A stretch of 44,932 nucleotides of DNA, taken from positions 1 to 44,932 of the forward strand of contig JAUCBJ010007638.1 of the NCBI GenBank assembly GCA_032718475.1. Direction: 5' to 3'. The notes below the pieces were generated by a model. That model was not told the DNA's origin and searched no databases. It was given only the letters and a program-made list of their open reading frames with translations. The stretch's first letter is position 1. Every line of letters begins with the position of its first letter. This document shows, in pieces, positions 16,961-42,609 of the stretch. Made by a program: the position numbers and the translations under genes. The stretch comes from Nemertoderma westbladi (lineage: Eukaryota > Animalia > Xenacoelomorpha).

Positions 16961-17100
16961 ACCGGTAACGATCAGACTGGAACACAGGAAAACAATCAAA
17001 AGGCCTACAATAAATCACGTTATTTAACTAACCTACCGGTAACCTGCAGAGCTGTACGGCTGTAAGTGTAACCTGCCTGCCTGCTAGTAACTGATTAAGG

Positions 17101-19837: not shown

Positions 19838-21097
19838 TGTTCGCGCTTTCGAAGACCTTTAGCAGTTTAACCTGCCAAAATTTATATGTCTTTTCGTTAA
19901 TTAAAACCACTTTAGCATACGACAATAATTTATGCTAATACGCAAAACATTAGCCGAAGTCAGCCCATGCGCGATCATTCACCCGATGGATCTACACCCG
20001 GGAGACTGAATTCGGATGCTTGAATTGTATTATTACAGTGTAAGGTTGCAGTGTATACCTAATGTATTATTCGATAGATCGTTAATAATTAATCTCTGAC
20101 AGCTATTATTGGCTTTCGGGAAATATTAACAGTTCCTTTAGGACGTGGCGCTTTATCTATTTAAACAGAACTAAGACTTATACTAAACGCAACGATACTG
20201 CTTATGATTAAAGTATAAAACGTATTCTTTAGGAAATACTTTGTTACCAATCACGATCATACACACTATTCTGCCGACAGTCAGTACATTTGATCACACA
20301 TAAAGAGAGCAGTAATTGACTCACGTAGGGTCTGCTAAATAACATTGGATTCAATACACACCACATTAATATAAATCGCAATTGTTATGTATAGCCGGTC
20401 TCTCTAACCTGTAGTGTTATCAAGAAAATTGGGAATTGGGTGATTTATCCGTATTATCCAAATAGCAATATTTCCATCAACAAATAGGTACAATTAATAA
20501 CTGACGGTAAAATAACAGTACAAACAATATGATTAATGCAATTAAATTAAGTAAGTAAAGTATCAAGGTGAGATGAGTGATTTAAGTCAGTGAGTAGGTA
20601 ACAGTTTATACTTTCGATAATTCAAGCAGTTTACGGTACAGCAGTATCTATCCAAAAATGCCGATGTTTCTGGCTTAGACAGCAATAACAACAAAGTATC
20701 AAGAAAAAACAGTAAGACTGAACACTCTCCTTATGATCGGCTGAAAAGCTACACGTCGACAGGAAAAATCGCTCTGATTGGCTCAAGCCAAACAAAGAAC
20801 CACGAGTCCAATGGCTGTTTCCATGTCAGCAACCAGCTGTTAGATGTCGTAATATGAATCATCACGGCTAAGCTGTGAAAGGTGGTTGGTGCATTACAGG
20901 TTTTTTGCCTTACCATGTCCGCTAAAACACGTATATAGCAGAATGATTTTTATGTCCGTTAAAACACCTGTAACGGTACCTTGCGGGCGAGGGGAATATA
21001 TATACAGTTAGAGAACCTTTTAGAGTATTCCAGCGCCTGGGGGGAAACTGGATTGCGAAGCAAAAGGGGCCAGTTATATCCCACAGAAGCTTTTACA
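19838..21097 (-). repeat. 3' LTR (1260 bp)
   Basis: Direct repeat of 31024-32283 of equal length; I found no differences by eye. Confidence 0.96.
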
Positions 21098-21106
21098 CCG
21101 CTCCCA
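21098..21106 (-). promoter_or_regulatory. Putative polypurine tract
   Basis: Sense TGGGAGCGG directly abuts the TGTAAAAG start of the 3' LTR. Short and imperfect. Confidence 0.55.
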
Positions 21107-21200: not shown

Positions 21201-22456
21201 TTACGCAGTCAAGAGTAGAGTCTTTTTCTCTTTGGGGCGAGCCACTTTACAAGGAGGGCTATAACTCCTGGGTGAAGGGTGCAACATGATTGCATCAGAG
21301 GGTATAGGATTATGGTCGGTGTATCCGCCAGTCGAAGTGCCGAGTTGATTGACATCAACGTCGGGGGAGAGGGGTCTAACGGCTTTGAGAGCTCGTTTCA
21401 AGACAGCCGCTCTTACGGGTCCTTTACGAGTGGTCTGAACGAGGGCCGTGGGTGGACCATAGGCAGTTAGAAACTTCCTTGGTTTAATGGTTCTTTCCAA
21501 CTCGCGTTCGCGGGCTCGGTACTCGTAAGGCCGTCGATATACTTCCTGTAACTCGATATGCGTGATTTCTGTTCGACAGAAGCGAATAGATAAGGATGGA
21601 ACGCATAAATTCCTTCGTAAGCGCGTCCAGGATAATAGCGATGGCGCGAATCACGATGTAAATCAGCGTTCGCTTCCCAAGCTCTAATGTAACGTAGTGT
21701 GATCATTTCATCTACGCTTTCCAAATCGCGATTAAAAGGGCAATCGAAACTGGCGTGTCCCTTTAGTGGACAGTGGTGACATTGAGTCATAAATTGAGGG
21801 CAAACCGCAAAAATATGCAAATTATTAAATCTGCAATACGCTCAATAAATTTCCATCGCCGGTTGTTCGTGGAAATAGGAACAGCGGACGTTTGTGTCCA
21901 TGGGCGTAACATGGTCTCTCGATGCGCATAACCGACAACGTTGCCGAGAAACATAGTTGGCATGGCGATAATCGTACGCAGTGAGACACTGTGGACCTTG
22001 ATACCATTCTAGGATGTAATCGTTGTCGCTGTTCCGAGCGCGATAGGCTGAATCTCCTCAGATTCTAGTCATATTGGTTCGTCTTCCCAGTCTGTTACGA
22101 ATAGAATTTTCGTGATCTATTCTCGGTTTATCGTTCCGCCTCCGCTGGGTATGATATTTAAATAGAACCATTTCCCTTTCGGTGTCTACATCGTCCGTAT
22201 CATGTAAATCGATAGGATGGCCGGTAGTTAGGAGGTCCATATACGTATTATTACGATGCGTATAGCGAGCGGTTAATTTTCGATAGTCCAATTCACGCGT
22301 AAGTTGCTCTTGGGACATCGGCGGTTCGATATAACGACCATCGTCCTCCGTAATAGTCGGATCGGCTTCACCGCGTATCAAGCTATCCACAAACGCTTGT
22401 AAAGGTAGAGTATATCGCTCTCTAATACCAAGGTCATCTTCTATTAATTCCATCAT
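21201..22456 (-). pseudogene. Decayed accessory ORF2 with three Cys/His zinc-knuckle-like motifs
   Basis: One frame runs from 22456 to 21467, broken only by TGA at 22060-22058 and 21844-21842. It encodes CRLCASRDH-x9-C, *AYCRFNNLHIFAVC and CHHCPLKGHASFDC. A probable frameshift near 21570 links it to the frame ending at 21201. A branch-point/acceptor-like TACTAAT...CAG precedes the ATG. Confidence 0.7.
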
Positions 22457-24075
22457 ATCTGCTATCTGAGTTTATTAATATTAGTATGAGTCAATATTTA
22501 GGTAAGCGGGCGTCGCTGCCTACTAGTCTTTGACCCCGGACAGTGGGTTTCTCAGCGCCGATGTACCGTTGTCGCGGTGTTTGCGCCAACATGTAGCAAC
22601 AGCACGACAACGATAATCGACACAAGTCCCACCACTGTCCGTCCCAAAGGCTTGAATCCACTTGAGGTTATCTCGGTAGAGTTAGGCTACTTTACAATTG
22701 CGATTAGCTACTGTAAACACACTTTAGTAGTATCATTCACCTATAAACGCACAAATTCCATACAATCATTACTTACTGCACACATGCAAGCCATTTTGTC
22801 CGTTAGTCATTGTCTTCCAGAATGTCACGTTATTACTATGTATCCTTGGATACTAATAGTGCGCTATGTATTCTCTTATGCTACGCAATGGGGCAAGCCT
22901 TTATTGTTCCTTTAACTTGCTTCTAATTCCAGCGTGGGTGTTGCCATGGTGACATTATGGAAAACTAGCGGTAGAATTAGGGTAATTCTCATGCATACAG
23001 ATCTGGGATGTTATTTAATAGTAATTCTTTAATTGTCAATATCCTCTTTATGCATGATTTTATAAATTTTATCGGCTATTGACTATATGTTGGAGATTCT
23101 CACACTCTAATACACTCAATATGAATCTCCGCTCCCATGATCTATTAATTACTGGAATTTTGGGAATGTTATAAATTGCACAAAATGACAATTTATGAAA
23201 TTCATTTGAATATGAATTTAAATTTATTCCCGTGAATTTTATTATTTGATGTTAAATTGACACAAATTTTATTCCAGAGCATATCTGGGGACTTAGGATC
23301 CTTAATTCTATAAAATAGTCCTTCTAAGAATATCGGTAAATACTGCGATATCTTAATTGACTAGAAATTTTAAAGGATCGGGATTTTACAGATTTTAATA
23401 AATATTAAATTAATATTTAGGATGGGCACCGATTTATTCCAGAACTTGTCTGGGGACATTAACCACTGATTCTAGAATTTGTCTTTCAAGTATATCGGTG
23501 GGTGCCGCGATATCTTAATCGACTAGAATTACAGATGGTCAAAAGTTTAACAGATTTATTTGCGATTTACGCTACTGTTAGAGGGACATCACGCTACTAT
23601 ATGTATTATTTGTTATAAGATAGAAAAGCAATATCGCACGAAGCAATGTCAGTGTGAAGAGGCAAGTCGTTTCCAAGGTCTACCCAGAGCTTGGTTTAGC
23701 AGAGACACGAGGATCTGAACTTTGCATTCCTAATACTCTGCCTACCAATAATACTTAAATATAGTAGTGGCTTTATTGTACTTTAATAAGTACGGACATG
23801 TCATCTTACTATAGTCTCGCATTTATAATATAATACGGACAGTAAGGAAAGAGAAAATAATTACTTCTTGCCGTCGCACTAAATATATTGTAAGTAATTA
23901 AATACGTAATAAACACTAATATATTGCACTAATTTACTAAATAATCCCTAAAATAACATTCTACCAAATAAAATTAAAGAAAACGATTATAATAATATTA
24001 CATAATAATACATACATAAATATAAAATAAAAACAAATATAAAATGATATAGTCACACACCCACTCCATATGTTA

Positions 24076-27000
24076 TTACGTTATGGAGTCCCTAGATATT
24101 TGTCGGATTAGGGAAGTGGTCGTAGGAAGAGTATCTTGCCTTCCATAGTTTCCGGACAGTTTTTGGTCTCTTTCCAGTAAACATAAACGACCAGCTGGGT
24201 GATTGGGTTGTCGTGTTACTTTCTCCGCTCCCTTGGCCTGTCTACTCTGCGCCGTGGTAAGATGAGGAGGCCATTCATCTTCTTCTTTACTTAGGGAGTC
24301 GGGTCCACCTAACCAGCCGGGAGTATCTATCCGTTCTTGAGGAGTCGCTCCTCTGGAAGCGATGTCGGCTAGATTAATCATTTCGGGGCGATGTCTCCAT
24401 TGTTCTTCATTGGAGTTAATATCGTCATTATCTGAGGAGTATGGTGTTCCCTCAGTTAGTTCGTCCACTTCACTGCTCCCCACTTCCCAACCATTTATCT
24501 GGCATATTCTTTCTGGTGGTAGTCTCTCTTCGAGAGTTCTGCGGGAAGGGCCAGTAAAGTACCAACCTACTCTAGTTCTTACCGCATAGGTTTGTAGTGG
24601 CTGCGGTTGAGCAGGTCGTTTTTCCAATGTCTCGAGCGCCTCGTGCGCGTTTTGGCCGATAAGTATTTGCACTCCAGGATAATCCGTTTGGAATCGAGGT
24701 ATTTTAAGTTGTTGGATGCTCTTGTCCTCGTCCCAATTATAAAGGTCTGCTTGGGTAGTAGCGAAGTTCTTTATAGCCACCATTTTTACTGACCTTATAC
24801 TTTGTGCTCCTAATTTATCCTGGGGGGTGGACAACGCACCTACATAGTAATCTGCCGTTATGGTAGATTTCCAAACCTGCATAATTCCGGACATATTCAA
24901 CTTAGTTTGGAATTTGGGTTGTCCAGCAAAGATATCTTCGGCTAGTTCTTGATCGATGAATGTTCCTGTGCTGCCGGAGTCAAGTAGGGCGTTCACTATG
25001 TAACTCTTGTTAAGACCGTGAACTCTTACTTGAACTACAGGAAATTCTCTGATTCCTACGTTGGAAGCTGGAGCTTTCCAAGATGGTTGTTTGTCAAAGG
25101 TGGTTGGGGGGAACTCCGTGTCAGTGTCTTTTTCGTACGTAAGTGCTCGATACACTGCGGTATTTATTAGATAACAGGATTCATTGGCATCGGAGAATTC
25201 GTCCGTATAGAATCCTTCCCACTCAGAACTTTGGTCAGTGTCGTTCTCATCACTGAATTGGACATGTGATTTGGGCTCACTTACCTGACTCGGGCTGTTT
25301 CGTTCGAATTCACTTTGTAACAAGATGTGATGTTTCGCACCGCACTTTGCACACTTTATGTCGGAGTAACAGGTTCGCCGCTGGTGTCCGCGTCTGAGGC
25401 AATTATAGCATAATCGCTTGTCCCACACAACTGTACGTCTGTCTACAAGGGATTTCTTTAGGAATTCCGCACACGCACTCAAACGGTGGGGCCCGTCGCA
25501 CAGCGCACAGTTGGGTTTAATGTTACTCACCTTATTTTGGGTGACGTTATGCACTCTAGTTCTTTCTTCGGGCTTTCTTCCGTGTACTCTGTTAGGAAAC
25601 TGAAGAGGAGTCTTAGCAACCTGTTCTCTCCTGTCATGGGTTCGAGCTTTAGATTTACTTACGTTCTTTGAGGTCTTGTTAACATAGTAAAATTTCTCGG
25701 TGTCTTTCTCGCTGTCTTCTTCTTGAGAAGCTAGGCTTTCGCCGTCATCAGTATAACACACCGGTGTTACTCTTCTCCTAGAAACGGGTTTCTCACTTAC
25801 CTTATTTTCCGGTGTTTTCTCTCTGGATTGCTTTAGGAGTTGTAATTTCACTTCGCCATCCAAGAATGACATGAGATCAGCCATGGTAGGGTCTCGTTGT
25901 TGTTGTTCCATCGTATATAACACCTTCTTGTCCCAGCGTGTACCTACTCCACCCTTGGGCAAAGTAGATGCTAAGGCTCCTACAACCATAGAATTCTGGT
26001 ATTCATGAGACTTACCTAACCAATCTAGTTGTCTACAGATCTCCTGAATCTCATCGGAAAACTCTATAATCCCGCTGCTAAGAAACTTTCGGGGGGCCAT
26101 TAATTTCGCATATAAATACCTAGCTATGTTATTCCTATTACCATACCTGATGTTTAGTGTATCCCAAACTTGTCTTAATCCATCTGGATGTCCAATAAAT
26201 TTTAACGCCATTGACTTGGGAGGTCCTTCCAAGCACTCGATGAGGAATCTAAGTTTCTCTCCGTTGGATAACACAGAGTTCTGTATGTTATCTTTATAAT
26301 ATTCATTAAAAGGTAACCATTTCATCTCATCTCCATTGAATTTGACGATCTCTCCAACCTTTACCGCTTGCCGGGCTTCGGTTCTAGCCATTTGACGCGT
26401 AAAACTTTCTTGGGCCATCGTGTTATTGAATATCGAGTTATCGGTATATAAATTTCTCGAATTATTATCAAGTCTATTGGGAATGTCATTAACAACAGGC
26501 GTATAATCACCCTTAATAGGGTTTGCTATAGGAGTTTCTACTTCACTAGCAGTATAGATGCGTGTAGGCTCCACACCTTGCGCATGTAATACTTCAGACC
26601 TAACAGGCTGACACACTGTTACAGGGGTTATTGGTATTCCCTTTTGTAGGTTGACTAATTTGTCGCATTCTAGTGCGATACTTTGCTGCACTTTTTGCAA
26701 CTCTAACCTACTTTCCCTCACCGTTCCCTTAAGTTGGTGGACAGTCTCCTGCATCTGTCCTAACAGGAGATTCATCCCCCGCCGTCCCTCCTCCACCCAC
26801 TCAACCGCTGAAGCGGGAGTCGCCAACATAGTAGCGGGCTGACGCGGGACGACGGGAGACAAATTATTGATTTCTCTCTCTGCTATCTGGACAGGGGTAT
26901 TTGAATGGACTGTTCCACCGGGTACAGGCAGTGTAGTGCTATGTAAAGGGAATTTAGAGTTAAGCTCTGGAAGTGTAGGGGTCTCTAGCACAGAAGTGAC

Positions 27001-28698
27001 TTTGGGAACTACAGGCCTAATTATTTCAGGTTCATCGACTATAGTAGGGAGCCTTTTGACCTGGATAAATTGTTCTATGGGTTCTGCACTACCTAAATCT
27101 GTGCTAGTTAGCTGTCTTTTAACAGCTGGGGGCAAATCAGGCAATTTACGACGGTAATATGTTTTTCTACGCCTACTTAGATGAGATCTATCTCCTCCGC
27201 CTTCAGGGTCGGTAGTATCGCCTTCTTCCGATGATGTGTACCCCTGGCGCTTGGGAGTAGATTTTCTCATCATCTGCATTTGATTAGCAGTAAACTGTTT
27301 ATTTATACTGTCTTGTGTCTCTTGCAGATTTTCCAACTCCAGTTGGGTAGTCTGCTCAGAGGCTCTCCGTTCTGCTTCGGCTACTGCTCTTTCCGCCTTT
27401 GCTTCTGCCGCCGCTACCCTTCCTTTTGCTTCTGCTTCTGCCGCTGCTGCCCTTGCTGCTATTCGTTCTGCTTCTGCTTCTGCCTTAGCCTCCGCCATAG
27501 CCGCTGTTTTTTGTTCCTCTATCCTTCTTTTCTTTATTTGTTCTTCTCGGACTCTAGTGAGGCGGAGTTTTTCATCACATTCAGCTTGGTTTGCAGCTAA
27601 CATTTCGGCATCGATCGAGTCCAATATAAGCTTGGTTCCTTCACTATTAGGGGAAAGTCCATGTAGCCGTCTCCTCAACTCTTCGTCTCCTAGGAATCGC
27701 TGATAGTCGGACAAATAAATGTCGATAGCGTCTCTAGTTCGCGGTTTCTCGGCGGCCTCTTCGCTTTCCTCTTGGGCAAGGGTGACATCAGTTTGTTCGG
27801 AGACATCAGTTGGTTCCTCATAGATTGATCTCTCAGCCAGCTGGGATTTCCACGGGGCTGTTTCCTGTACTTTGAGATCTACTCGATGTAGCCAAGTTTT
27901 GACAGCAACCTGCAGCGACGTGTCCTGTCTTCTTTTGGAAGTTTCCTCAAAGGCTGAGAGGATTAGTCGAATGCGTAGGGTTCTTTCGCGTATTTGATAT
28001 AGCAGTTCTTCCTGCTCTTGAGGTCCGTGAGGTTGTCGAAACAGTTGTTCCTCCAATCGCTCCAAGGATCCGAAGAATCCCTGCACATATCCTGCTGCCG
28101 ACCTCTTCCAAACAGCTGGATCCACTGTATCTTTGGCCACTCCCATCCTGTGTATATCTTCCCAAGTAGCCTCGGACATATCAAACGGAAGTCCGAGTCC
28201 GGGAAAGTTCCATTGTGATTCAACAATAGATCTCAATTCTTCCCTGGCGTATCCCGCGTAATTATCTTGGGTCGCTTGCTTATTCTTCGCCCAGTCGGTT
28301 TGATGTTCTTCCACCGCAATGAGTATAGTAGTCAGGACTGCAGCAGGAAGAGTAAGAAGGGGGTCCGAGTAGACTGTATCAGCCATCTGCACTCCATGTT
28401 CGGGAGTCAACTCTACAGTATCCGAACTGCTGGAGCTATCCAGTCTCTGGGAAGTAGGTTCTTGACCAAGATGTTGCTGCGATAGGACAGCTGCCTCTTG
28501 GTCCCGTTTTACCTGTGCCCGAGTGCCTATGATGGACCTATGGTGGACTAGCCTAGGGTCTGATACTACTAGAGGGATGACCTTTTTTACAGTAGGAGGT
28601 GAGCCGAACTTCTCTTTTATTCGCTCCACACTTCTATCTGAATCACAGATAGTGGTCTCGATCAGACTGTCCGACAGGTTTTGCTGAGTGTCAGACAT
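24076..28698 (-). CDS. BEL/Pao Gag-protease polyprotein (1540 aa) with RNase H and integrase C-terminal remnants; no RT or integrase core
   Basis: DUF1759-like gag core (KFNGDEMKWLPF...LSNGEKLRFLIECLEG...LNIRYGN); BEL triple knuckle (CALCDGPHRLSAC...CYNCLRRGHQRRTC...CAKCGAKHHILL); aspartic protease (ALLDSGSTGTFI...ILIGQN...RTRVGWYFTGP). No YVDD or DDE region. Confidence 0.92.
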   Translation of the reverse strand: MSDTQQNLSDSLIETTICDSDRSVERIKEKFGSPPTVKKVIPLVVSDPRLVHHRSIIGTRAQVKRDQEAAVLSQQHLGQEPTSQRLDSSSSSDTVELTPEHGVQMADTVYSDPLLTLPAAVLTTILIAVEEHQTDWAKNKQATQDNYAGYAREELRSIVESQWNFPGLGLPFDMSEATWEDIHRMGVAKDTVDPAVWKRSAAGYVQGFFGSLERLEEQLFRQPHGPQEQEELLYQIRERTLRIRLILSAFEETSKRRQDTSLQVAVKTWLHRVDLKVQETAPWKSQLAERSIYEEPTDVSEQTDVTLAQEESEEAAEKPRTRDAIDIYLSDYQRFLGDEELRRRLHGLSPNSEGTKLILDSIDAEMLAANQAECDEKLRLTRVREEQIKKRRIEEQKTAAMAEAKAEAEAERIAARAAAAEAEAKGRVAAAEAKAERAVAEAERRASEQTTQLELENLQETQDSINKQFTANQMQMMRKSTPKRQGYTSSEEGDTTDPEGGGDRSHLSRRRKTYYRRKLPDLPPAVKRQLTSTDLGSAEPIEQFIQVKRLPTIVDEPEIIRPVVPKVTSVLETPTLPELNSKFPLHSTTLPVPGGTVHSNTPVQIAEREINNLSPVVPRQPATMLATPASAVEWVEEGRRGMNLLLGQMQETVHQLKGTVRESRLELQKVQQSIALECDKLVNLQKGIPITPVTVCQPVRSEVLHAQGVEPTRIYTASEVETPIANPIKGDYTPVVNDIPNRLDNNSRNLYTDNSIFNNTMAQESFTRQMARTEARQAVKVGEIVKFNGDEMKWLPFNEYYKDNIQNSVLSNGEKLRFLIECLEGPPKSMALKFIGHPDGLRQVWDTLNIRYGNRNNIARYLYAKLMAPRKFLSSGIIEFSDEIQEICRQLDWLGKSHEYQNSMVVGALASTLPKGGVGTRWDKKVLYTMEQQQRDPTMADLMSFLDGEVKLQLLKQSREKTPENKVSEKPVSRRRVTPVCYTDDGESLASQEEDSEKDTEKFYYVNKTSKNVSKSKARTHDRREQVAKTPLQFPNRVHGRKPEERTRVHNVTQNKVSNIKPNCALCDGPHRLSACAEFLKKSLVDRRTVVWDKRLCYNCLRRGHQRRTCYSDIKCAKCGAKHHILLQSEFERNSPSQVSEPKSHVQFSDENDTDQSSEWEGFYTDEFSDANESCYLINTAVYRALTYEKDTDTEFPPTTFDKQPSWKAPASNVGIREFPVVQVRVHGLNKSYIVNALLDSGSTGTFIDQELAEDIFAGQPKFQTKLNMSGIMQVWKSTITADYYVGALSTPQDKLGAQSIRSVKMVAIKNFATTQADLYNWDEDKSIQQLKIPRFQTDYPGVQILIGQNAHEALETLEKRPAQPQPLQTYAVRTRVGWYFTGPSRRTLEERLPPERICQINGWEVGSSEVDELTEGTPYSSDNDDINSNEEQWRHRPEMINLADIASRGATPQERIDTPGWLGGPDSLSKEEDEWPPHLTTAQSRQAKGAEKVTRQPNHPAGRLCLLERDQKLSGNYGRQDTLPTTTSLIRQISRDSIT

Positions 28699-30039
28699 AT
28701 TTAGTTATACAGTTGAATGTCTACTACTATAGTTTCAGTTAAAGCAAGTCTAGTAATTCAGTATGACCGCAAGCCTAGCGATTTATTACCGGTACCGTTA
28801 CTCGGTGTAACGTGATATATACACAATATATTAGAATACCGGTATGCTTATAATATATAAGTATTATTACAGACTAGATTTGTCACAGAGTACCGGTATA
28901 TAATTTTAGCACAAATATATATATATATATAGTAGGCCTATAATGAATACCGGTATACAGCCTACACTTACAGCATGTAAGTATAATTATGAACTAGAAT
29001 TAATTACAGAATACCGGTATGATTTCCGCTCAAATATATAGTGATAAATATAATAAGCCTATAATGAGTACCGGTATGTCAATTATTTTAGGATATTTGA
29101 ATCTCTGAATATTTTAGGGCTACTTGGTTACTTTAACTTACTTTATTACCGTTATTTAAGCAGTAGTCCAACTGACAGTGAGACCTAGTTTTTGTATGAC
29201 AGGCCTACTATTTATAAATCGTTTGATTTGATTTATAATATTTATATACCCGTTATATGGGTTTTTTGTCAATATTTGAAATAAATGTTATTATTTCTGG
29301 GGGTCACTACACAGAAGCTGAACGCCTCTCAGTGAAGTGCTATTTATTTGACACTAAAACTGATAATTCTAATTTACCTAAGTTACTTAATACTACGAAT
29401 TACTTACGATACGGGTGAGATTAATTCTCTAATTAAACACAACAAAATATTACGGACGAAATTTTTTAGGGTAATTTTACAGGAAGTCTACAAACCAGTC
29501 CAACAAAGGGTTAGATTTCTGGCTATTACAAAGGACAGGGTACTACGGTATTTAAATAATAAGTAGTAGTAAATATATTGTACTGTCCAGATAGGAAAAT
29601 ACCACCGCCTGACGACCTATAACCGTATCGCTATAGGTACAACGTTATGTATCACGGATTGTTCCTACCCAGAAGTTAATAGAGCTAACGAATGTGCCTA
29701 TCAACCACTTTACAACACAAATATACTGCCTACACTAATTACTTCGGAAGGCACTGTACTCTAAACCCTAAATTAGGTACAAGTACCGGTATAACAAATA
29801 ATCAGTAGTTAAATATACTTGAACAGTTAAAAGAACCACGGCATCTGCTGGAGTGACCGAAGCACAAAGTCGTCAGTCTTTACCTACGCCAAGCAGCCCT
29901 GATGTAGTACCGGGGTTAGTTTAACTATAACGGTATGTATAACAAGCACAATTACTGTAGGAATAAACTTGGGGACATGAATGTTGCGAATAATCGCATA
30001 AACTCTGAATAATAAATATTACGCTACCCGTACAGAACA

Positions 30040-30580
30040 CTCAAACAAATACAAACCAAACGCTGGCAGACTACTATCAAGCCTAAACAAACTACTGTAT
30101 GTGCAGATTCTGAAACTGTTAGTTAGTATGCGTGCTAACACGGTAGTACGACTTACTCTTTAAGAGGGGATTGACCTTACAGTGTTGACTGCCCCAACTT
30201 ACTAACGGCACTTGATCAGACCAACTCTACACACGCAGCAATCCCTTCAGACCTAAAAATAGCTAGACAACAATCCAGCCTACAAAATATCTGAGTAATA
30301 ACTATTACGGTACCTGAACAGACCACACAAACAAACACAGGCCAAAACACTGGCAGACTACGATCAAGCCTAAATAAACTACGGTATATGCAGACTCTGA
30401 AACTGTTAGTTAGTATGCGTGCTAACACGGTAGTACGACTTACTCTTTAAGAGGGGATTGACCTTACAGTGTTGACTGCCCCAACTTACTAACGGCACTT
30501 TATCAGACAAACTCTACACACGCCGTAATCTCTCCAAACCCAACCACAGTCAGACAGCAGCTCAGCCTACAATTATCTGA
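30040..30580. repeat. About 287-bp tandem duplication in the element leader
   Basis: TGGCAGACTA starts at 30064 and 30351; long identical blocks (CTGAAACTGTTAGTTAGTATGCGTGCTAACACGG...ACTAACGGCACTT). Confidence 0.9.
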
Positions 30581-31010
30581 ACAATCTGAGTAGGGTCACA
30601 CGCCTTCTGCTCAATATTAGCCTACTAGTAAATAAAACTGACAGAAATAGACCTAAGTAAAATCCCAATAAAAACCAGGCGTCCCCGATTTAATATCGAG
30701 ACCTACCGGTATACAACAATCAAAATCGAATAATACTAATGTACTTGTACAGCAGTACCGGTACCGGTGATGACAGTTAGGCCTACTGACCTACAAAGTA
30801 CCGGTTCAGTTTTACCGGTCACTACGGTATTTTGCAACCCTATTGCCTACTGCAATAAGATTGTAAACCGTTACTGTTCGCCAGAACAGTATTAAACTGT
30901 ATTTAATGCCTACACTTGCAACCTTATTGCCTACTGCAATAAGATTTATAAACTGTTACTGTTCGACAGAACAGTATTAAGCTGTATTTAATGCTTACAC
31001 TGCAATACAA

Positions 31011-31023
31011 TATAAACTGTTAC
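31011..31023 (-). promoter_or_regulatory. Non-tRNA primer-binding site, complementary to own LTR (putative self-priming)
   Basis: Sense GTAACAGTTTATA starts at the first nt after the 5' LTR and is the exact reverse complement of sense TATAAACTGTTAC at 31796-31784. No TGG-type tRNA PBS. Confidence 0.75.
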
Positions 31024-32283
31024 TGTTCGCGCTTTCGAAGACCTTTAGCAGTTTAACCTGCCAAAATTTATATGTCTTTTCGTTAATTAAAACCACTTTA
31101 GCATACGACAATAATTTATGCTAATACGCAAAACATTAGCCGAAGTCAGCCCATGCGCGATCATTCACCCGATGGATCTACACCCGGGAGACTGAATTCG
31201 GATGCTTGAATTGTATTATTACAGTGTAAGGTTGCAGTGTATACCTAATGTATTATTCGATAGATCGTTAATAATTAATCTCTGACAGCTATTATTGGCT
31301 TTCGGGAAATATTAACAGTTCCTTTAGGACGTGGCGCTTTATCTATTTAAACAGAACTAAGACTTATACTAAACGCAACGATACTGCTTATGATTAAAGT
31401 ATAAAACGTATTCTTTAGGAAATACTTTGTTACCAATCACGATCATACACACTATTCTGCCGACAGTCAGTACATTTGATCACACATAAAGAGAGCAGTA
31501 ATTGACTCACGTAGGGTCTGCTAAATAACATTGGATTCAATACACACCACATTAATATAAATCGCAATTGTTATGTATAGCCGGTCTCTCTAACCTGTAG
31601 TGTTATCAAGAAAATTGGGAATTGGGTGATTTATCCGTATTATCCAAATAGCAATATTTCCATCAACAAATAGGTACAATTAATAACTGACGGTAAAATA
31701 ACAGTACAAACAATATGATTAATGCAATTAAATTAAGTAAGTAAAGTATCAAGGTGAGATGAGTGATTTAAGTCAGTGAGTAGGTAACAGTTTATACTTT
31801 CGATAATTCAAGCAGTTTACGGTACAGCAGTATCTATCCAAAAATGCCGATGTTTCTGGCTTAGACAGCAATAACAACAAAGTATCAAGAAAAAACAGTA
31901 AGACTGAACACTCTCCTTATGATCGGCTGAAAAGCTACACGTCGACAGGAAAAATCGCTCTGATTGGCTCAAGCCAAACAAAGAACCACGAGTCCAATGG
32001 CTGTTTCCATGTCAGCAACCAGCTGTTAGATGTCGTAATATGAATCATCACGGCTAAGCTGTGAAAGGTGGTTGGTGCATTACAGGTTTTTTGCCTTACC
32101 ATGTCCGCTAAAACACGTATATAGCAGAATGATTTTTATGTCCGTTAAAACACCTGTAACGGTACCTTGCGGGCGAGGGGAATATATATACAGTTAGAGA
32201 ACCTTTTAGAGTATTCCAGCGCCTGGGGGGAAACTGGATTGCGAAGCAAAAGGGGCCAGTTATATCCCACAGAAGCTTTTACA
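31024..32283 (-). repeat. 5' LTR (1260 bp)
   Basis: Sense TGTAAAAGC...GCGCGAACA; lies upstream of the minus-strand gag. Confidence 0.96.
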
Positions 32284-33035
32284 AGAACCATCGGCCTATT
32301 TCCTTTGTAAACTATTTTTTAACTCTAAACATTATTACCGGTAACACATTTTAGCACCCGCAACGCATGAAGTGAAGAATATGTAGTCTTAGCGTATTCC
32401 TCTATATAGAGTATACAGGTATAGGATGCATTACTGTTGAAAGCATTTGATGGTTGTGGGTTGTTTATTGAACCTACCGTATGGTCTTATTTTAGTACTG
32501 AACCGCTTGGAATACGTAGGCCTACTAATGATAAACGACGTATAGGCATAGTTGTTATGGCTGTATGGGTAGGACCTACGCGTAGTTATACGTAGCACCT
32601 ACGCGTAGGTCGCGTAGGACCTACGCGTAGCTACGCGTAGCACCTACGCGTAGTTAATGTTAAAACTCTGAAACTGGTGATATATGACCCAATGTTGCGA
32701 ACTACGCGTAGCTACGCGTAGCCCTACGCGTAGGTCGAAAAGATTTATCCACTTTTTATGTATGTATTTCTTCAAACTGTCAGACTGCTGATTTCTGGAC
32801 TGTCAGACAGTTGATTTCAACATGCCTATGCCAAAACATTCAAAATTTGTTGATTTCTGGTCTGTCGGACAGTTGGTTTCACTATGCCTGTGCCAAAACA
32901 TTCCATGATTCCATGATTTATAGACTATGAGATAGAATTCCATATGCGCCTGTGGTAAAAGACTCTAAATTTAATAGTTTGTGGTTGTTGTCGATAATCG
33001 ATTACCACATGACGTAGCAAAACACTCATTTTATA

Positions 33036-33872
33036 GCCAAAAACAATTACCAATTGATGGAAAGGAGCAGGTTAAGGCCGGATTTTCTAACCAAAACAAT
33101 AAACAGTCGTTTTACCAAATCAGGGAAAGGAGCTGGTTACAGAGGCGGGATTTTCTAACCAAAACAATAAACAATCATTTGACTAATTGAGGGAAAGGAG
33201 CGCAGGTTACCGAGACGGGATTTTCTAACCAAAACAATAAACGATAACATTACCAATTGAGAGAAAGGAGCAGTTACAGAGGCGGGATTTTCTAACCAAA
33301 ACAATAAACAGTCTCTTTACCAAATTAGGGAAAGGAGCAGGTTACAGAGACGGGATTTTCTAACCAAAACAATAAACTATAACATTACCAATTGAGAGAA
33401 AGGAGCAGGTTACAGAGGCGGGATTTTCTAACCAAAACAATAAACAGTCACTTTACCAAATCAGGGAAAGGAGCAGGTTACAGAGACGGGATTTTCTAAC
33501 CAAAACAATAAACGATAACATTACCAATTGAAAGAAAGGAGCAGGTTACAGAGGCGGGATTTCCTAACCAAAACAATAAACGATCACTTAACTAATTGAG
33601 GGAAAGGAGCAGGTTACAGAGGTGGGATTTTCTAACCAAAACAATAAACAGTCACTTTACCAAATCAGGGAAAGGAGCAGGTTACAAAGACGGGATTTCC
33701 TAACCAAAACAATAAACGATCACTTAACTAATTGAGGGAAAGGAGCAGGTTACAGAGGCGGGATTTTCTAACCAAAACAATAAACGATCATTTAACTAAT
33801 TGAGGGAAAGGGGCAGGTTACAGACGCGGGGGAAAGGAGCAGGCTACAGAGGTGGGATTTTCTAACCAAAAC
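33036..33872. repeat. 68-bp satellite, about 12 copies
   Basis: Core GAAAGGAGCAGGTTACAGAG.CGGGATTTTCTAACCAAAACAATAAAC. AACCAAAAC recurs at 33089, 33157, 33227, 33294, 33362, 33430, 33498, 33566, 33634, 33702, 33770 and 33864. Confidence 0.96.
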
Positions 33873-35504
33873 GACCGGTCAGCCGTTAGGCCTACCAGTA
33901 CCGTATTTAAATGGTAGGCTACACAGTAGGCCTACAGCAGTACCGGTGCTGGTACCGGTACTAAAATACAGAAATACCTGCTTTATACCTACATCTGTAC
34001 ATACAATACAGAAAAATAGTGCTATATATACTAATACCGTTACTGATAGCCTGAGAGAACAGCAGTAGAGAAACCGGTAGCATGGAACCAACATTTCGAT
34101 TTTTGGAGGACATAAAAAATAATAAAAAAAAGGACAAAAAAAGGATTTAAACGGACAATAAAAATTATTGCGTAACAATGATAAACAACACAATTATAGC
34201 ATTAACATTACGACACGAAGTGACTTATGCACCAGCTAAACTATGAACTAAAAGATTAAGTAAAATTATACACTTCAATAAAACAGTTAAAATCAATATT
34301 AAACGTTACAGATTTCGATCAAATTTTATATATTTTTTAAAATCCACAGTAAGTAATACGAACTGACTGACAAACGGGTTTTTACAGTACGAAGCTATCA
34401 AAAGATAGCTCAATCAATAGATTAATAATTTTTAGAGTAACAGATCACATATCATTTGTGTTAATGTTTCAACCCGGATTGATATTATTTTAACTCGGGT
34501 TGAAATTCAAGAAAAAAATTTTGATCAAAATAAAAATTAACAAAGTAGTGAATTATTTTTGCCACTTTCACCACCGTACACACAATATATATTATTTTAT
34601 GAATATTTTTAATTTTTAAATAACCTCCACTGACATTTCATTACCCAGCAATGCAGCAAAGTCATAGCATGATAAGTTGCTGATAAATTGCTATCTACTG
34701 TAGATCTACTTTAATAATTTTTAATAATTAGTATTTACTAATTATTTTTGTTTGAAAAATCCGCTTTTTCTTGCTAATATTTTAATTTTTGAAATTTAAT
34801 TATCAGACAAAAAGACCTACGTACTACTTAGTCCTATATTAATTTTTATCCTACTCTCTCATATAATTATTACAACGAATTATCGATAGTTTTTCATCAC
34901 ATAGCGAGGGCCCCCCGTGGAATCGAAACGTAGCCTCATGGGTTTATCTTCGATGGCAAATCATGTTCTGATATTATTCAATGTTTTAGAGTCACCGTCA
35001 TCTCCATCACCGACAAGACAGTCCAGGTCTATCTATGTCTTGTCTACAGTATGTTATTTTGCAGTTCATTAACTGAGTAACATATGAACATATATTATTA
35101 TAAACATACAGTACAGACATTTCTAACCTACAGTATTTTATTTTTTTAAAACCATTTTATTTAAGACCATTTTATTTTCAGTAAAGTATTACAATTTTTT
35201 TCTTTTAAATATACAGTACATAGTGAAGACATTTCTAAGTCAGTAATTATTATACTTACACATCTTAATAGTGCTAATGAACTATTAATGGAATCTCTCT
35301 CTCACACTACAGTATCCGATTGAAGGTCTTTTCATTTACTTTTTGCTACTTTTGTTGTTCTGTTTAAAACTGTTTTATTATGTTACCGCTATTGTTCATA
35401 TATTATTGTATAATATTTAGAGTTCAGGGTACTATAATACTACAGTACCGCCATTACACCTACTGCAGAATATTTTTTAAAATTGATTCCCTTTGTTGTA
35501 GAAG

Positions 35505-35600
35505 TTGTGAAGCGAGCCACGCAGTCAGGGCGAGACTTAGCGCACAATTATAATTAGTAAATAGATCAAAACTTCATGTCCGTCTGTCTGGCAGTCTGAC

Positions 35601-35634
<34 letters not shown>

Positions 35635-35830
35635 CCTGTATGTCTGTCTGTGTGTGTGTGTTTGAAAAATTTATTCGTAAATAACCTTTGAAGATCTTAA
35701 CCATTTTCAACAAAATTTTGTATGGGCATACTAGAGAAAAATTACCAATATTTTTGAAAGTTATGGGCAAATACCTCTCGAACTTTTGACTCCAGATCAA
35801 ATCGAACTTGTTTCGAACTTGCTCAAGTTC
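35505..35830 (+). mobile_element. Possible Helentron-associated non-autonomous (DINE/HINE-like) fragment with a (GTCT)n tract
   Basis: Short GC-rich head, (GTCT)n/(GT)n microsatellite at 35577-35662, then AACCATTTTCAACAAAATTTTGTATG, a layout typical of such elements. Ends not defined. Confidence 0.45.
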
Positions 35831-35915
35831 GCGTGCTGCGCGACGCCCACGAACGTGTTCATTCAATGTGCACTCAACTTATATGACAGTAAGTTCGTTC
35901 GTCTGTCTCAATGAT

Positions 35916-36770
35916 GGATAGTTATAAAACCCGAAAAAAACGAAAAAGACGAAATTATTAACGAAAATATCGAAATTATAAAACTTTAAATAAATTCTCG
36001 TTCTCTTTCCATTGAGATCGATATTATTAGAAGGCACACTTTACATTTTTTAATTAAGAAAATCCGATAATTTCGCCCCATTTTCGACCCTAAAAGTAAT
36101 TTAATACCAAATACTGGCTCTGCTGATTGGTTGTTAGGGGTGATCCAAATGATTGCAAAACAGCACAAGATGGCGCTCAAATTAGGACAGTACAGTCAGA
36201 GTGTAGGCCTACTGCAGTTATAGCGACTGCTGGACTGCAATTCTGTAGTTACGTTCACCTGTTCACATCCGCCGCGCCGCGTCACTTGCCTGACAGTCAC
36301 TGTAGGCCTACAGTGCACACCTAGGCCAGGTAGCGCTAAAGGTACCGTATGCCGTAATGCAAACAACATTTCATATGGGAATTACATCGTTGCAGTATTG
36401 GGTTAGGGTACCGGACCGCTTCTTTCAACTTTGCCGCTTCAGGCTGTACCATACCATATGCTTGTACTGTACAGTAATACACCAGTAGGCCCCTATAGGC
36501 TACTGATCTGTTGATGCTGAGTCATTCATCCAAGCTGCCATTATTGGTCAACACCCACCAACCAACCAGTAGACAGTATTTGGTATTAAATTACTTTTAA
36601 GGTCGAAAATGGGGCGAAATTCTCGGATTTTATTAATTAAAAAATGTAAAGTGTGACTTCTAATTATACTCATCTTATTGGAAAGCGAGATTTTGTAGAT
36701 TGTTTGATAATTTTGATATTTTCGCTGATAAATTCGTCTTTTTCGTTATTTTCGGGTTTTATAACTATCC
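35916..36770. mobile_element. Non-autonomous MULE with about 230-bp TIRs, 855 bp
   Basis: GGATAGTTATAAAACCCGAAAA...TTTTCGGGTTTTATAACTATCC with long imperfect inverted arms. Perfect 9-bp TSD CTCAATGAT (35907-35915, 36771-36779). Confidence 0.92.
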
Positions 36771-37019
36771 CTCAATGATTGGTCGACACTATGTCAGCAA
36801 CAGCGAAGTAAATTTTTTGAAATTTGGTGAGGCGCTAAAATATCACTTCGTCTAGGCTAAGAATCTCCGCCATTAATTTTGATAAAACTTTCACAGAATG
36901 ACCTATGAAATGTTCTCAATTAAAGGAGAAAATTTAGGGTGCCGTGAAATTTCACGGTCCACCGCTAGGTGGTGCTAAATATCCAATCGTCACACCCTCC
37001 AATAGTCCAACCTCCAATA

Positions 37020-38845
37020 GTAACTTTACTGGAATTAAATTATAACAGTGCAACAAATGACAATTTCCCTACTAGTTAATTAAGTTGGTGGCTGAGCCAT
37101 TATCACACCATCTTTATTTTATTATTAACTTATCTTTCTCGACTGGATACTTTCCAGACTCATTGAAATCCGCATTGGTAATAGCGAGCTTTAAAGGAGG
37201 GGACCCTTTTAGATTCAAATTATAGACCAATATCATTACTGCTTATTTTTAGTAAAATATATGAGCAAATTATATATACGCAGCTACAGTCCTACTTAGA
37301 GCACTTTTCTATTTTCTATTAAGCCAATTTGGATTTCGGATAAAAATTTCCACATCCTCAGCTATTCTAACTGTCACAGAAAAAATTAGGCATGTTCTCG
37401 ATACTAAAACATCTAGTTGTGCAGTGTTCATTGACCTTAAAAAACGTTCGACACTTTGAACCATAAAATATTATTCAAAAAATTGGAAACGTATGGTATA
37501 CGAGGGTTTTTTGACCAATCGATCACAAACTGTCTCATCAAATAGAACTATAAATTCCCCCAGCTTGAATCTCTACTGCGGAACTCCACAAGGGTTTGTG
37601 TTATCTCCTTTATTATTCCTTTTATATGTTAATGATCTGCCCATGGCCAGTAATTTATTAACGACACTTTTCGTAGATGACACGACACGTCTAAACTCTC
37701 ACAGTAACTTACAGCTACTTATTTCAACTACTAACAACGAACTTGATAGAATTGCTGATTGGCTCATAGACAATCGTTTAATACTGAATCTGAAAAAATC
37801 TGAACATTCAATATTTTCTAATATAGAAAAAAACGGCTCCCCCAAGGTTAATATAAAAATAATGAAATTAAACAAGTGAAGCATACCAAATTTCTAGGAG
37901 TATATAGATGAAAATTTAAACTGGAAACCGCACATCAGCCATATTTTAAACAATAAAAATATCGAAATCATCCGCGGCTTGTTTTATAAATTAACACACA
38001 TATTTCCTTTTGAGATTCTACGTACCGGTATGCTTTACTATTCATTGATTCATCCATATATAAATTATGAGATTCTACCCTGGGGTACAGCTTGTAAGTC
38101 TGTTTGTTCTCCGTCCGCTTAGAATAAAACTGAACAAAATACTTAGATGTATAACATTTAGTGATTCGCGAGCCTCTTCAGTGCCAATTTATAAAAATCC
38201 AAAAATTTTACCGGTTAACTTACTATTTGAATTTGACCTAGGCCAACTACTTTACGATGTGTCCAATAATCCTAAAACTCACCCACTATCACACTTATTT
38301 TCCAAATGTTCAGACTTCCACAGTTATTATACCCGATCGTCGAATCAAGGTCATTTTATAGTACCTCTAACTCATTTAAATGTTGCGCATCAATCTATAA
38401 GTGTATCTGGTCCTATTTTCTGGAATGCGCTACCGAATAACATCTGTAAGGCTAAAATAAACAAATTTTTAAAATCCTCCTTAAAAAGTATCTGATAGAC
38501 CATATAACCTGAATTAAACGGCAAATTTAATCATGATTTGAGTTTCTTTTTAAATTCCGCTGTATCCTATTATCTGCGAATTTCCGTAAAAGAATTCGAA
38601 CATGACACATGTTGATAGCATTATATTTAATTTAATATCTACGTACAGTACTTTCCTATTATAGTCAGTTGGTGAAATGGTAGCCTCGACTAGCCCTAAG
38701 CTATTGTAACCATCCCACAAACACCCTACATCAGCTCAATAAAATTTCAAAGTAAAAATAATATTCACACTTTCACACAATGTCATTATTACTTTCACTT
38801 TCATTGTATTCATCGCTGGTGGTGGGGTTTCAATAAAACTTGAAA
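37020..38845 (+). mobile_element. Decayed 5'-truncated CR1/L2-group LINE (RT pseudogene)
   Basis: Across frameshifts: NYRPISLL, QFGFR, AVFIDL, FDTLNHKIL, GTPQGFVLSPLLFLLYVNDLP, LFVDDTT, KFLGV, DENLNWKPHI, HSYYTRSS, GPIFWNALP. 3' AATAAAACTTGAA at about 38832. Confidence 0.88.
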
Positions 38846-38872
38846 GAAATTTTAGAATTATGAGAAAATATA

Positions 38873-38924
<52 letters not shown>
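38873..38924. repeat. (AATC)13 microsatellite
   Basis: Perfect 52-nt tetranucleotide run. Confidence 0.98.
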
Positions 38925-38925
<1 letters not shown>

Positions 38926-39307
38926 GTGAGTAAATATCCGCCATTATTAACCTATTATAGCAATGATAAAGCGAGACAATATTGCAAAATTCTAATTTTT
39001 TTAATTTTAAAATCCTATTGTATCCTGTTTATCATTGCTTTAAATTATTAATTATTTTACAGTAGATAATAATTTCATTAATGATTAACGATGCGACGTC
39101 GAAAGAGACAAGTGACGTTTTAATAAGAGATAATAGTATTACATTTTATATAGAAGGGAGTAAATATCTTTTGAAATGCTGTTAAAATTGCTGTTTTGGT
39201 TTTTTATTTTTCAATTAGGGAAAAAGGTATTCTATTTCATATAAGTAAAAGTATGCTTCGAAAACTGATAGATTGTTGACTTGAAACTAATAATGAACCT
39301 GTCTTTA

Positions 39308-39718
39308 GGGGTGACTACAAAACAAAGACCAAAGACCCAAATAATAAAGACCTGTTCAAAACTCATATGTTAACTTGCGTTTATTGTTTTGGTTCCCCCA
39401 ACACGCCTCTGTAACCTGCTCCTTCACTAAACTGCTCCTTTAAATGACAATGGGACCTAACGCTCATAACGCAATAGGACCTATCGCTCTTCGGGCCCTA
39501 ACGCTCTTTGGGACGTATCGCGACTTTACCTCTTTGTTTTGTACAGGTCCCAAAGAGCGTTAGGTACCAGTGCCATTTAAAGGTGCAGGTTAGTAAAGGA
39601 GCATATGCTACAGAGGCGTGTTGGGGGAACCAAAACAATAAACGAAAGTCAACACATGTTACAATATTATGCAGGTCTTTATTATTTGGGTATCTGGTCT
39701 TTGTTTTGTAGTCACCCC
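39308..39718. mobile_element. Foldback MITE, almost entirely palindromic (about 410 bp)
   Basis: GGGGTGACTACAAAACAAAGACCA...AAATAATAAAGACCTG is inverted at 39672-39718, and the arms continue inward imperfectly for about 170-190 bp. The flanking duplication reads as TTTA (4 bp) or CTTTAG (6 bp). Confidence 0.85.
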
Positions 39719-40718
39719 TTTAGACTGGGTAGTTTTTATCTAAAGCTGAGGCCGTCAAAAACATGATGGATGTGTCTGGTGCACCGAGACCCAGATTTTA
39801 ATCCGCCATCTAGCAGAAGCGCTCGTCGAAAAGCGGGATGGCATGCATGAAAGGGGTCTCGCCCTCGCGTGTGGGGGGGGGGGGGGGTTCCTTCGCACTC
39901 CTTCGCTCTAGCTCCCTCTGCTTGCGTGGGGGTCGACGATCTTGGCGTGGCCTACTGTAGGGTTCGGTGACGGTGACGGTGCGGCGTGCGGGGCTTCAAT
40001 CCGGCCGGGCAGTTCTATACCAGAGACATACCAATGTTGTTATCCTTGCGACGATGTACTACTGTACAGTACGATGAGATTCAGGGAGGAGTGATTTCTG
40101 TTAGCTTCGATTAACAAATAAACTAAATACAACTTTAACTCTAGACTAAATAATGTACAGTAATTTAATTGTTTCAACAATATGCTATTATTTATTTCAT
40201 TATTTGTTTTCAATAATAACGCGTCCGTATTTGTGTCTTATTTATGTGTATGTATGTATAACCACCAAAGGGCTTTTACCACTTGCATTTATTGAAAAAT
40301 TGTAAACGCGACTATTTAATCAAGTATGAAGTTGAGAACGCTGTGATATGTGCGATATTCGAAAAATTTGCATATTATTATTAACATTATGGAACGTGAA
40401 ATTAAATACCTACAACTACACTTTGACAGCTGAACAACATTTCGCTAATTATTGTTTGTTCTATAATTATTATTATTGATTATAATTATACTTATTATTG
40501 TTTTAATTTGTTCTATATGTCACTATTTATATTTACATACAGAAATAACATTATCAATTAGTCAGTCAGATAATTTAGTTGCAGTAGTTATGTGTAGATC
40601 GGATATCAGGGTATTTGGATTTTTTTGAGAATTAGAGGATAGTGGTTTCGTCTGCAAAGTGTATACATTTTTTTAGAGGCCTCTGGACAAAGGCCATTGG
40701 TCTCTGGCCGGAGGCTAT

Positions 40719-42235
40719 TGTAAAAGCCTTTGCTGAATTGCCCCGTTATTTTTATTATTTTTTACATTAAAATACTCTGTAGTTGATTTAATAGGTGTAA
40801 GAGACCGTATTATTGCTGTATCGGTGTTTTTAGAGGATCTAAGAGCTATTTCCTCCGTATGTGTACTGTGGAAGGCATAGTTGATGATTCTATGGCAATT
40901 CCGTGACGCAAAAGGTGATAGCTACTCTTGAACAGTAGTTACTATGACGACGGTTAACAGCTGATATTCATACGTGTCGATTTTCTTTGTTCTACAGCGT
41001 CTCTCAGTTCAGTCAGCCAATCAGAGCATTTTTATGGCTCTTGTACAGAAATTTCCTAGAAATCACGTAATGCTTTATGTGCAGTGTTTACATTCTGTCC
41101 TGAGCCAGGAGAGAGCGGCTTGGGAATATTTTGTGCTTTTCTGTTTTAGCCTAACACTAGTAGGCTTAATTATAAGGACATATATCCGTTATCTGATTGT
41201 CTCAAACCAAACCTTACTTACTGACACTGCATACTGTGTAACACTGAGCATACTTTATATTGTTATACTGCTATTTACTGTCGGTCCTTCATAATATGGT
41301 TGATGAATTATTATATTTGGAATAACGAGAAATAACCCCGAAACCCAATATTCTTGATATACCGAAGGTAAGAGAGAAAGGTTACATATAACGATTGTGA
41401 CTTATGTTAAAGTGGTTTGAAGTGAATCTAATGTTATTTGATAGACCCTACAAGATTCGGTCTGTGTTCCTTTTATATGTGACTAAAATCAGTGAAGATC
41501 GGCAGATTAGTGTGCAGTATTGTGCAGCATTGTGTATGAGTGAGACTGATAACGAAGCATTTCCTAAAGAATGCGCCATATATGTGAATTATAACTAAGC
41601 CATATCGTTGTGAGTAGTTTAAGTCATAACTCTGTTTATATAGATAGAGCGCCACGTCCTAAAGGAACTGTTAATATTCCCCGAAGGTGAATAATATTGT
41701 CAGAGATTATATAATACTGTCAGTCGAATAATACTTTAGGCTTACATAGCAATAAGATTAAGCCGTCGAACCCAATCTCCCGGGTATATCCAGCGGGTGA
41801 ATGATCGCGCACAGATTGGTTTCGACTAGTGTAGTGAATCAAATACTTGTCAGAGGCTAAAAGCAATTTATTATCTAAAAGACATCTTAATTTGGCGGGT
41901 TAAGCTGCCAAAGGTCTGAAAGCGTGAACAATAACTCTGTTTATATAGATAGAGTGCCACGTCCTAAAGGAACTGTTAATATTCCCCGAAGGTGAATAAT
42001 ATTGTCAGAGATTATATAATACTGTCAGTCGAATAATACTTTAGGCTTACATAGCAATAAGATTAAGCCGTCGAACCCAATCTCCCGGGTATATCCAGCG
42101 GGTGAATGATCGCGCACAGATTGGTTTCGACTAGTGTAGTGAATCAAATACTTGTCAGAGGCTAAAAGCAATTTATTATCTAAAAGACATCTTAATTTGG
42201 CGGGTTAAACTGCCAAAGGTCTGAAAGCTCGAACA
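40719..42235 (+). repeat. 5' LTR of element 2 (1517 bp including a 305-bp tandem duplication of its 3' end)
   Basis: TGTAAAAGC start and GCTCGAACA end, by homology to the element 1 LTR. 41626-41930 and 41931-42235 are near-identical copies. The partner LTR is outside the window. Confidence 0.8.
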
Positions 42236-42246
42236 ATAACGGATAT
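42236..42246 (+). promoter_or_regulatory. Non-tRNA primer-binding site of element 2, complementary to own LTR
   Basis: ATAACGGATAT starts at the first nt after the LTR and is the exact reverse complement of ATATCCGTTAT at 41182-41192. Confidence 0.75.
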
Positions 42247-42313
42247 TGCTTCTTTATTGCAGTAAGCAATAAAGTTGAAAGTACCGGTCAACCGGTAAAC
42301 CTGAACGGTACAT

Positions 42314-42429
42314 CTGTAGGTCAGTAGGCCCAACTGCCAGAACCGGTACTGCCGTAGGTCCGTAGGTCCAACTGCCAGAACCGGTACTTCTGTAGGTCCG
42401 TAGGCCCAACTGTCCTAACCGGTACTTCC
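42314..42429. repeat. 38-bp tandem repeat, 3 copies
   Basis: GTAGGTC.GTAGG.CCAACTG.C..AACCGGTACT starting at 42316, 42354 and 42392. Confidence 0.9.
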
Positions 42430-42609
42430 AGTATAAGTACATTAGTATTATTCGAATTTGATAATTATATACCGGTAGGTCTTAGTACTTAATCAGGGAA
42501 CGGCCGCCCTGGTTTTTTATTGAGATTTTTACTTATTTCTGTCAAGTTTTATTTGTTTGTAGGCCAGTATTGAACAGAAGGCGTGTAAGCCTGATCAGAT
42601 TGTACAGAC

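Follow-up and report, generated by a model that had tools for sequence, protein, structure and literature searches.

Candidate self-primed reverse transcription in a BEL/Pao-derived LTR family of Nemertoderma westbladi

Priming of reverse transcription by the element's own RNA is described for the LTR retrotransposon Tf1, in which the first 11 nt of the RNA pair with the primer binding site (PBS), RNase H cutting between nucleotides 11 and 12 (accessible part of PMC7175516). Duplexes flanking this helix build a structure known as the pretzel (PMC10085805, in its available sections). For the Tcn1 clade and the TAR lineage, self-priming has been predicted from sequence, as far as the accessible text of PMC6317226 goes. 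BEL/Pao elements are reported to possess an 18-nt PBS for a host tRNA-Arg or tRNA-Gly primer, while their replication is poorly understood (PMC8742986), and the available portion of PMC4580426 gives a tRNA-Tyr PBS for Achilles, a member of this group.

When compared with itself, the window, i.e. the whole stretch of 44,932 nt analysed here, proved to contain a complete minus-strand LTR element (element 1) and, on the plus strand, a related element represented by its 5' part (element 2). Two copies of the element 1 LTR (32283-31024 and 21097-19838, minus strand) are identical over 1260 nt. The 5' LTR (31024-32283, minus strand; 1260 nt, TG...CA) has the same sequence as the 3' LTR (19838-21097, minus strand), which is preceded by a short purine-rich tract (21098-21106, minus strand), a candidate PPT. 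The LTR end was set at ...AACA because a 5-nt target-site duplication (GTTCT; left copy 32284-32288, minus strand, right copy 19837-19833) flanks both sides, and the identity of the LTRs together with this duplication indicates that the insertion is young. The unit consisting of LTR end and PBS is present in three tandem copies in the element 1 leader, the two further copies (30862-30959, minus strand) being exact (30959-30947) or deviating by two changes (30874-30862). Element 1 is flanked by palindromic short-repeat arrays (19079-19388 and 32547-32903) that are related to each other in inverted orientation, and a foldback or MITE-like element may enclose it. Tandem arrays of 68 nt and 31 nt and a 430-nt imperfect palindrome were also noticed in the window (33047-33830, 6364-6703 and 39298-39728).

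The 5' LTR of element 2 (40719-42235, plus strand) comprises 1517 nt and its start is homologous to that of the element 1 LTR. The end of its U5 is duplicated in tandem by 305 nt (41626-42240), and this duplication opens and closes on the five letters that start the element 2 PBS. Across the leader and the gag start (2.5 kb), the two elements share 82% identity; their LTRs agree to approximately 50% in U3 and to 55-84% within the 3' half. The Gag start of element 2 (44495-44932, plus strand), truncated by the end of the window, shows 71% identity to that of element 1. The leaders (2.3 kb; 28847-30584 and 42306-44384) have tandem repeats of 288, 121 and 38 nt in common. In both elements, duplication breakpoints coincide with the LTR end and the first PBS letters (41626-42240; 30832-31028), which may reflect slipped plus-strand transfer. 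As 10,031 contigs of the DNA run X1 map to the 1.5-kb LTR stretch, the family can be called abundant and varied, a figure of this kind not being a copy number.

The assignment to BEL/Pao made in the preliminary description is supported by the coding content of element 1. An ORF of 1542 amino acids (24076-28704, minus strand) encodes a BEL/Pao Gag with a DUF1759 match (E 2e-13) and Cys/His knuckles, a protease and, of the Pao RNase H region, nothing but its end; the Pao Peptidase_A17 family (PF05380) occurs in 26 of 28 homologues of this ORF. Directly behind the protease, the reading frame enters the terminal part of the RNase H region, so that most of RNase H is missing. With 22 full-length BEL polyproteins, neither an RT core nor an integrase was detected in the window, matches being confined to the protease and the RNase H end. 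Lacking RT and integrase as well as most of RNase H, element 1 is non-autonomous, a point absent from the preliminary description, and needs a helper. Gag and protease type, TG..CA LTR ends and a short target-site duplication agree with BEL/Pao, but neither element contains an 18-nt PBS matching a host tRNA at its 3' end. The elements are therefore filed as a non-autonomous BEL/Pao-derived family departing in this respect from the ICTV description.

Behind a splice acceptor, element 1 contains a second, Cys/His-rich ORF (21467-22471, minus strand), which is interrupted by two in-frame stops in this copy. It revealed a weak zinc-knuckle match (E 0.003), but no Pfam family above the cut-off and no credible Atlas match; Atlas matches to bacterial DUF444 were discarded as noise of low recognition. 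The ORF occupies the position of an accessory gene where env would be. A coding role of the conserved U5 was rejected since the element 1 LTR has no shared long ORF (frames below 80 amino acids), element 2 having been inspected by eye only. Outside the elements, two intronless single open frames were found, one for eIF3b (14831-17014, minus strand; 727 amino acids, 47-55% identity to the 120 animal homologues listed) and one for a RASSF-type RA-SARAH protein (987-2027, plus strand). Both may be either intron-poor host genes or retrocopies. Judged by the eIF3b identities, the host is a divergent metazoan, none of the homologues listed coming from a close relative.

In the preliminary description it had been proposed that the nucleotides directly following the LTR pair with a stretch of the same LTR, and the positions and letters of both pairs proved to be correct. 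The PBS of element 1 (31011-31023, minus strand) comprises 13 nt located immediately 3' of the 5' LTR. Read on the element strand, 31023-31011 is the exact reverse complement of 31796-31784, the candidate self-primer at LTR nt 488-500 (31784-31796, minus strand), and pairing extends to 15 bp with one G:U up to 31798. A second copy of this partner is carried by the 3' LTR at 20610-20598. In element 2, the 11-nt PBS (42236-42246, plus strand) is the reverse complement of 41182-41192 (plus strand), the candidate self-primer at LTR nt 464-474. Pairing ends exactly at the LTR boundary, the next pair being a C:A mismatch in both elements, and the partners are found at aligned positions behind a common GCTT(G)AATTAT. 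A tRNA-type PBS starting with TGG is absent, as had been stated; the first TGG lies 141 nt (element 1) and 275 nt (element 2) after the LTR. Two points of the earlier account have to be modified. The changes between both PBSs are indeed compensated in the partners, but instead of differences at five of 11 positions a gapped alignment gives three substitutions and one indel. Likewise, a putative R-U5 of approximately 750-770 nt would hold for element 1 (about 770 nt from partner to PBS) but not for element 2, where the distance is about 1050 nt because U5 contains the 305-nt tandem duplication.

The significance of the pairing was assessed in several ways. In dinucleotide-shuffled LTRs, a complement to the PBS start of equal or greater length appeared in two of 20,000 cases for element 1 and in 15 of 20,000 for element 2. 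Among 861 starts around the LTR end, the PBS start of element 1 has the longest LTR complement, tied with its own tandem copy, and that of element 2 the second-longest, a 12-nt match at 42444 being longer. Cross-pairing failed, as PBS1 on LTR2 and PBS2 on LTR1 each reached only 5 nt; accordingly, duplex energies were -17.0 (element 1) and -14.1 (element 2) for the own partner and -8.2 and -4.9 for the cross combinations. Judged by free energy only, the element 2 duplex is weak and was reached by 29 of 300 shuffles, that of element 1 by none of 300. An invariant U5 motif (LTR nt 964), which is able to form an 8-nt pairing with PBS1, served as internal control. It does not track the changes in PBS2, unlike the partner at nt 488/464, which does. 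It should be kept in mind that this covariation is drawn from two elements only. In run X1, the partner itself has no listed substitution of at least 3%, an empty row that does not prove identity; indels of 1-7 nt do appear right beyond the partner's 3' end, at 31775-31780. One contig of run X5 has a partner shortened by one A.

Several RNA structures were predicted around the putative priming site. A U5 stem (31140-31201, minus strand) is kept in both elements with three two-sided and two one-sided changes in two-sequence folding; the region folds in each element alone, though with an unremarkable energy (reached by 19 and 38 of 200 shuffles). A hairpin approximately 20 nt before the LTR end (31043-31066, minus strand) exists in both elements (z -4.3 and -3.1) and beat all 200 shuffles in each. 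It is thus likely from these models that U5 is structured. In both elements, one and the same U5 segment is the best pairing partner of the leader directly following the PBS: 31008-30993 with LTR nt 1053-1068 (31216-31231, minus strand) in element 1, borderline if taken alone, and 42247-42268 with 41739-41764 at the homologous, likewise predicted duplex of element 2. Depending on the folding window, this second duplex was reached by 7, 18 or 47 of 300 shuffles (element 1) and by 90, 15 or 4 of 300 (element 2), and its resemblance to one arm of the Tf1 pretzel must be called borderline. The other arm of the pretzel, LTR end with U5, did not rise above shuffles (88/300 and 264/300). When the whole R-U5-leader was folded, the primer:PBS helix formed in element 2. 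In element 1 it had a probability of 0.84-1.0 in one of three constructs and of 0.05 and 0.0 in the other two; the outcome shifts with the point at which the RNA is truncated. Element 1 additionally has a 13-nt U5 insertion that is absent from element 2 and finds its complement in the second leader repeat; pairing of 31249-31215 with 30943-30902 on the minus strand yields -30.9 kcal/mol, reached by 13 of 300 shuffles.

Information on transcripts came from sequencing runs, all of them in the form of contigs. One contig of X5, a public run labelled 'DNA?', follows the LTR to 31595 and resumes at 22671. This is a canonical splice removing a GT..AG intron of 8923 nt (22672-31594, minus strand), which reaches from LTR nt 690 to the region of the 3' ORF and takes out U5, PBS and gag. 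At least three more X5 contigs end at the same exon end (31595), while X1 contigs continue into the intron, and the splice donor is kept in element 2 (41368). Moreover, 66 plus-strand T>C places (A>G on the element strand) were counted for X5 between 30900 and 32400, compared to 19 in each DNA run. Its splice and T>C behaviour suggest that X5 is RNA; alternatively, the contig may be a spliced DNA copy. Should the contig be RNA, it follows that transcription starts upstream of LTR nt 689 and that a subgenomic mRNA without U5, PBS and gag reaches the 3' ORF. The T>C excess and a divergent X5 contig (734 nt over U5 with 90 differences) may be due to A-to-I editing of element RNA or to a divergent subfamily.

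Regarding the position of the start site, the bound set by the splice would fit a start near nt 488 and one near nt 518 equally well. A motif directly upstream of the element 1 partner (31797-31815, minus strand) is common to element 2 and might be a start-site element. Further upstream, a CCAAT box (31963-31967, minus strand) lies in a block of 13 nt that recurs in element 2 (41017), at a distance of 171 and 165 nt from the respective partner. In element 1, TATAAA occurs at nt 488, 30 nt before an Inr-like TCACTC at nt 518, but it is not kept at the corresponding place in element 2. AATAAA is missing from both LTRs throughout. The summed depth of X5 contigs drops from approximately 10,800 at 31625-31634 to 1,300 at 31595-31604, where X1 continues; a 3' end near LTR nt 660 would be consistent with this drop, which was not counted because it stems from one study and from contigs only. 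None of the six X5 rows listed has a loose poly(A) end. For X1, depth values of 410-490 thousand at 31785-31814 and 28-79 thousand at 31735-31784 were obtained, contig depth being unable to rank parts of the element. Run X4, RNA by guess, is thin and gives no cover at the partner bin.

Taken together, the sequences of both elements argue that a stretch of 11-13 nt of the LTR probably serves as a Tf1-like self-primer in these two members of a high-copy BEL/Pao family. Transcription would start at the partner or slightly upstream, and the unspliced RNA would bring the partner onto the PBS by folding over a long, structured R-U5. RNase H of the helper element's RT might then cut at the 3' end of the partner, leaving a 3'-OH opposite the first PBS base, from which RT would copy ...AACA, U5 and R before jumping to the 3' R. 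Having lost U5 and PBS, the spliced RNA would be no template but would act as mRNA for the 3' ORF. The long span of about 770 nt between partner and PBS counts against self-priming, as do the weak energy of the element 2 duplex and the X5 contig with the shortened partner.

It is conceivable, albeit unlikely, that the partner belongs to U3 and that transcription starts near LTR nt 518, in which case the copy in the 3' LTR would pair with the PBS for circularisation, for priming after an internal cut or merely as an aid in strand transfer. TATAAA at nt 488 together with the Inr-like TCACTC at nt 518 of element 1 would suit this arrangement, and any start before nt 689 is compatible with the splice evidence. 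However, element 2 lacks TATAAA at this place, and indels occur between TATAAA and TCACTC in family copies. Besides, a primer needs the exact stop of pairing at the LTR boundary, which circularisation does not, and cutting the 3' copy would destroy the 3' R required for transfer. Even less is to be said for a primer provided by the 3' end of the RNA, with polyadenylation cleaving the transcript where the 3'-LTR partner ends and the resulting end annealing to the PBS. Since both LTRs are devoid of AATAAA, the sequence does not fix the 3' end, which leaves room for such a cut; on the other hand, no hexamer resembling a poly(A) signal is common to both elements upstream of the partner, and X5 contigs span LTR nt 500-689, past the partner, although they may derive from the 5' LTR. 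This explanation is therefore considered very unlikely. Neither element has an interrupted partner, so that a primer assembled by removal of an intron from the LTR was rejected; when every GT/GC..AG join within the LTRs was scanned, element 2 yielded no such primer and element 1 only trivial 2-nt primer extensions.

Priming by a host small RNA, a tRNA half or another species, with the LTR complement acting as a regulatory mask of the PBS, ranks between these two explanations and is improbable as well. Half-tRNA priming, the type of copia, Osser and Bianca, is known in Ty1/copia (PMC6317226, accessible part) and BEL/Pao elements are described as tRNA-primed (PMC8742986; available portion of PMC4580426). 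However, TGG is absent near both LTR ends, and leaders that are approximately 80% alike would require two primers differing at four to five places, each difference being mirrored in the LTR. The window contains no tRNA genes. A comparison of the PBS letters with a table of tRNA 3' ends gave no match, but it is uninformative, since the positive control was also unmatched and the entries end with CCA by construction. Rfam yielded two matches on 30500-43200, both far below the gathering score, and no ribozyme or intron family. Hardly any weight can be given to the notion of a chance complementarity or a functionless relic. The sequence is AT-rich and chance matches of 10-12 nt do arise among the 861 scanned starts; but here two elements, a fixed start position, a homologous partner site and matched changes coincide. 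In a metagenome scan with a pattern for the signature, all five loci turned out to be chance matches of 18-26 nt, and among viral contigs with a BEL polyprotein one pattern match was obtained and none confirmed.

With Tf1 and Tf2 of S. pombe, Tj1, Tosmo and the Tf1/sushi group, the elements share an LTR-adjacent PBS, a complement of approximately 11 nt within their own LTR, the lack of a tRNA and U5 structures (accessible parts of PMC7175516, PMC10085805 and PMC4600332). They differ from this group by the BEL/Pao Gag and protease, by the partner-PBS span of about 770 nt and by a splice donor located within the LTR, and borderline support exists for just one pretzel arm out of two. Because their Gag is of the BEL/Pao type, they are not members of Tf1/sushi, which are Ty3/gypsy chromoviruses, and it is the proposed mechanism that is alike. 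The TAR lineage (Houba, Osr-1; Ty1/copia) and Tcn1 resemble them in that self-priming was predicted from sequence, beyond Tf1/sushi or at its margin (PMC6317226, in the accessible part), but belong to other superfamilies and to plant and fungal hosts. The Belpaoviridae (Tas; Achilles) have in common with them the DUF1759 Gag, the knuckles, the protease, the Pao RNase H region, of which a remnant is left here, TG..CA LTRs, a 5-nt target-site duplication, a metazoan host and an extra 3' ORF. By contrast to that family (PMC8742986; available portion of PMC4580426), the elements described here have no tRNA PBS, and element 1 is devoid of RT and integrase.

In the literature searched, no report of self-priming in BEL/Pao was found, though a remark in Repbase Reports, GyDB, the full ICTV report or subscription papers (e.g. 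Butler 2001) is possible. The accessible parts of PMC3601003, PMC2864245, PMC6934838, PMC3286476 and PMC13524379 contain no link between BEL/Pao and self-priming, and a term search detected no primer-related mention in the available text of PMC3118150, PMC554778 and PMC12440569. The mechanism is thus a known one, seemingly undescribed in BEL/Pao within this literature. Whether a BEL/Pao lineage has swapped tRNA priming for self-priming, as the third superfamily to do so, with a primer held across a 770-nt R-U5 and a splice donor in the LTR that sorts self-priming unspliced RNA from spliced mRNA for a 3' zinc-knuckle protein, is a wider proposal for which the chances are evenly balanced. The abundance of the family and a copy with identical LTRs make it possible to map the start site and the primer directly in the host. 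If the proposal is true, self-priming reaches a third LTR superfamily, which would suggest that RT/RNase H can repeatedly adopt a primer from its own RNA. The element might thereby be freed from the tRNA supply and from silencing by tRNA fragments, and self-priming would account for BEL/Pao elements that have been annotated as having 'no PBS'.
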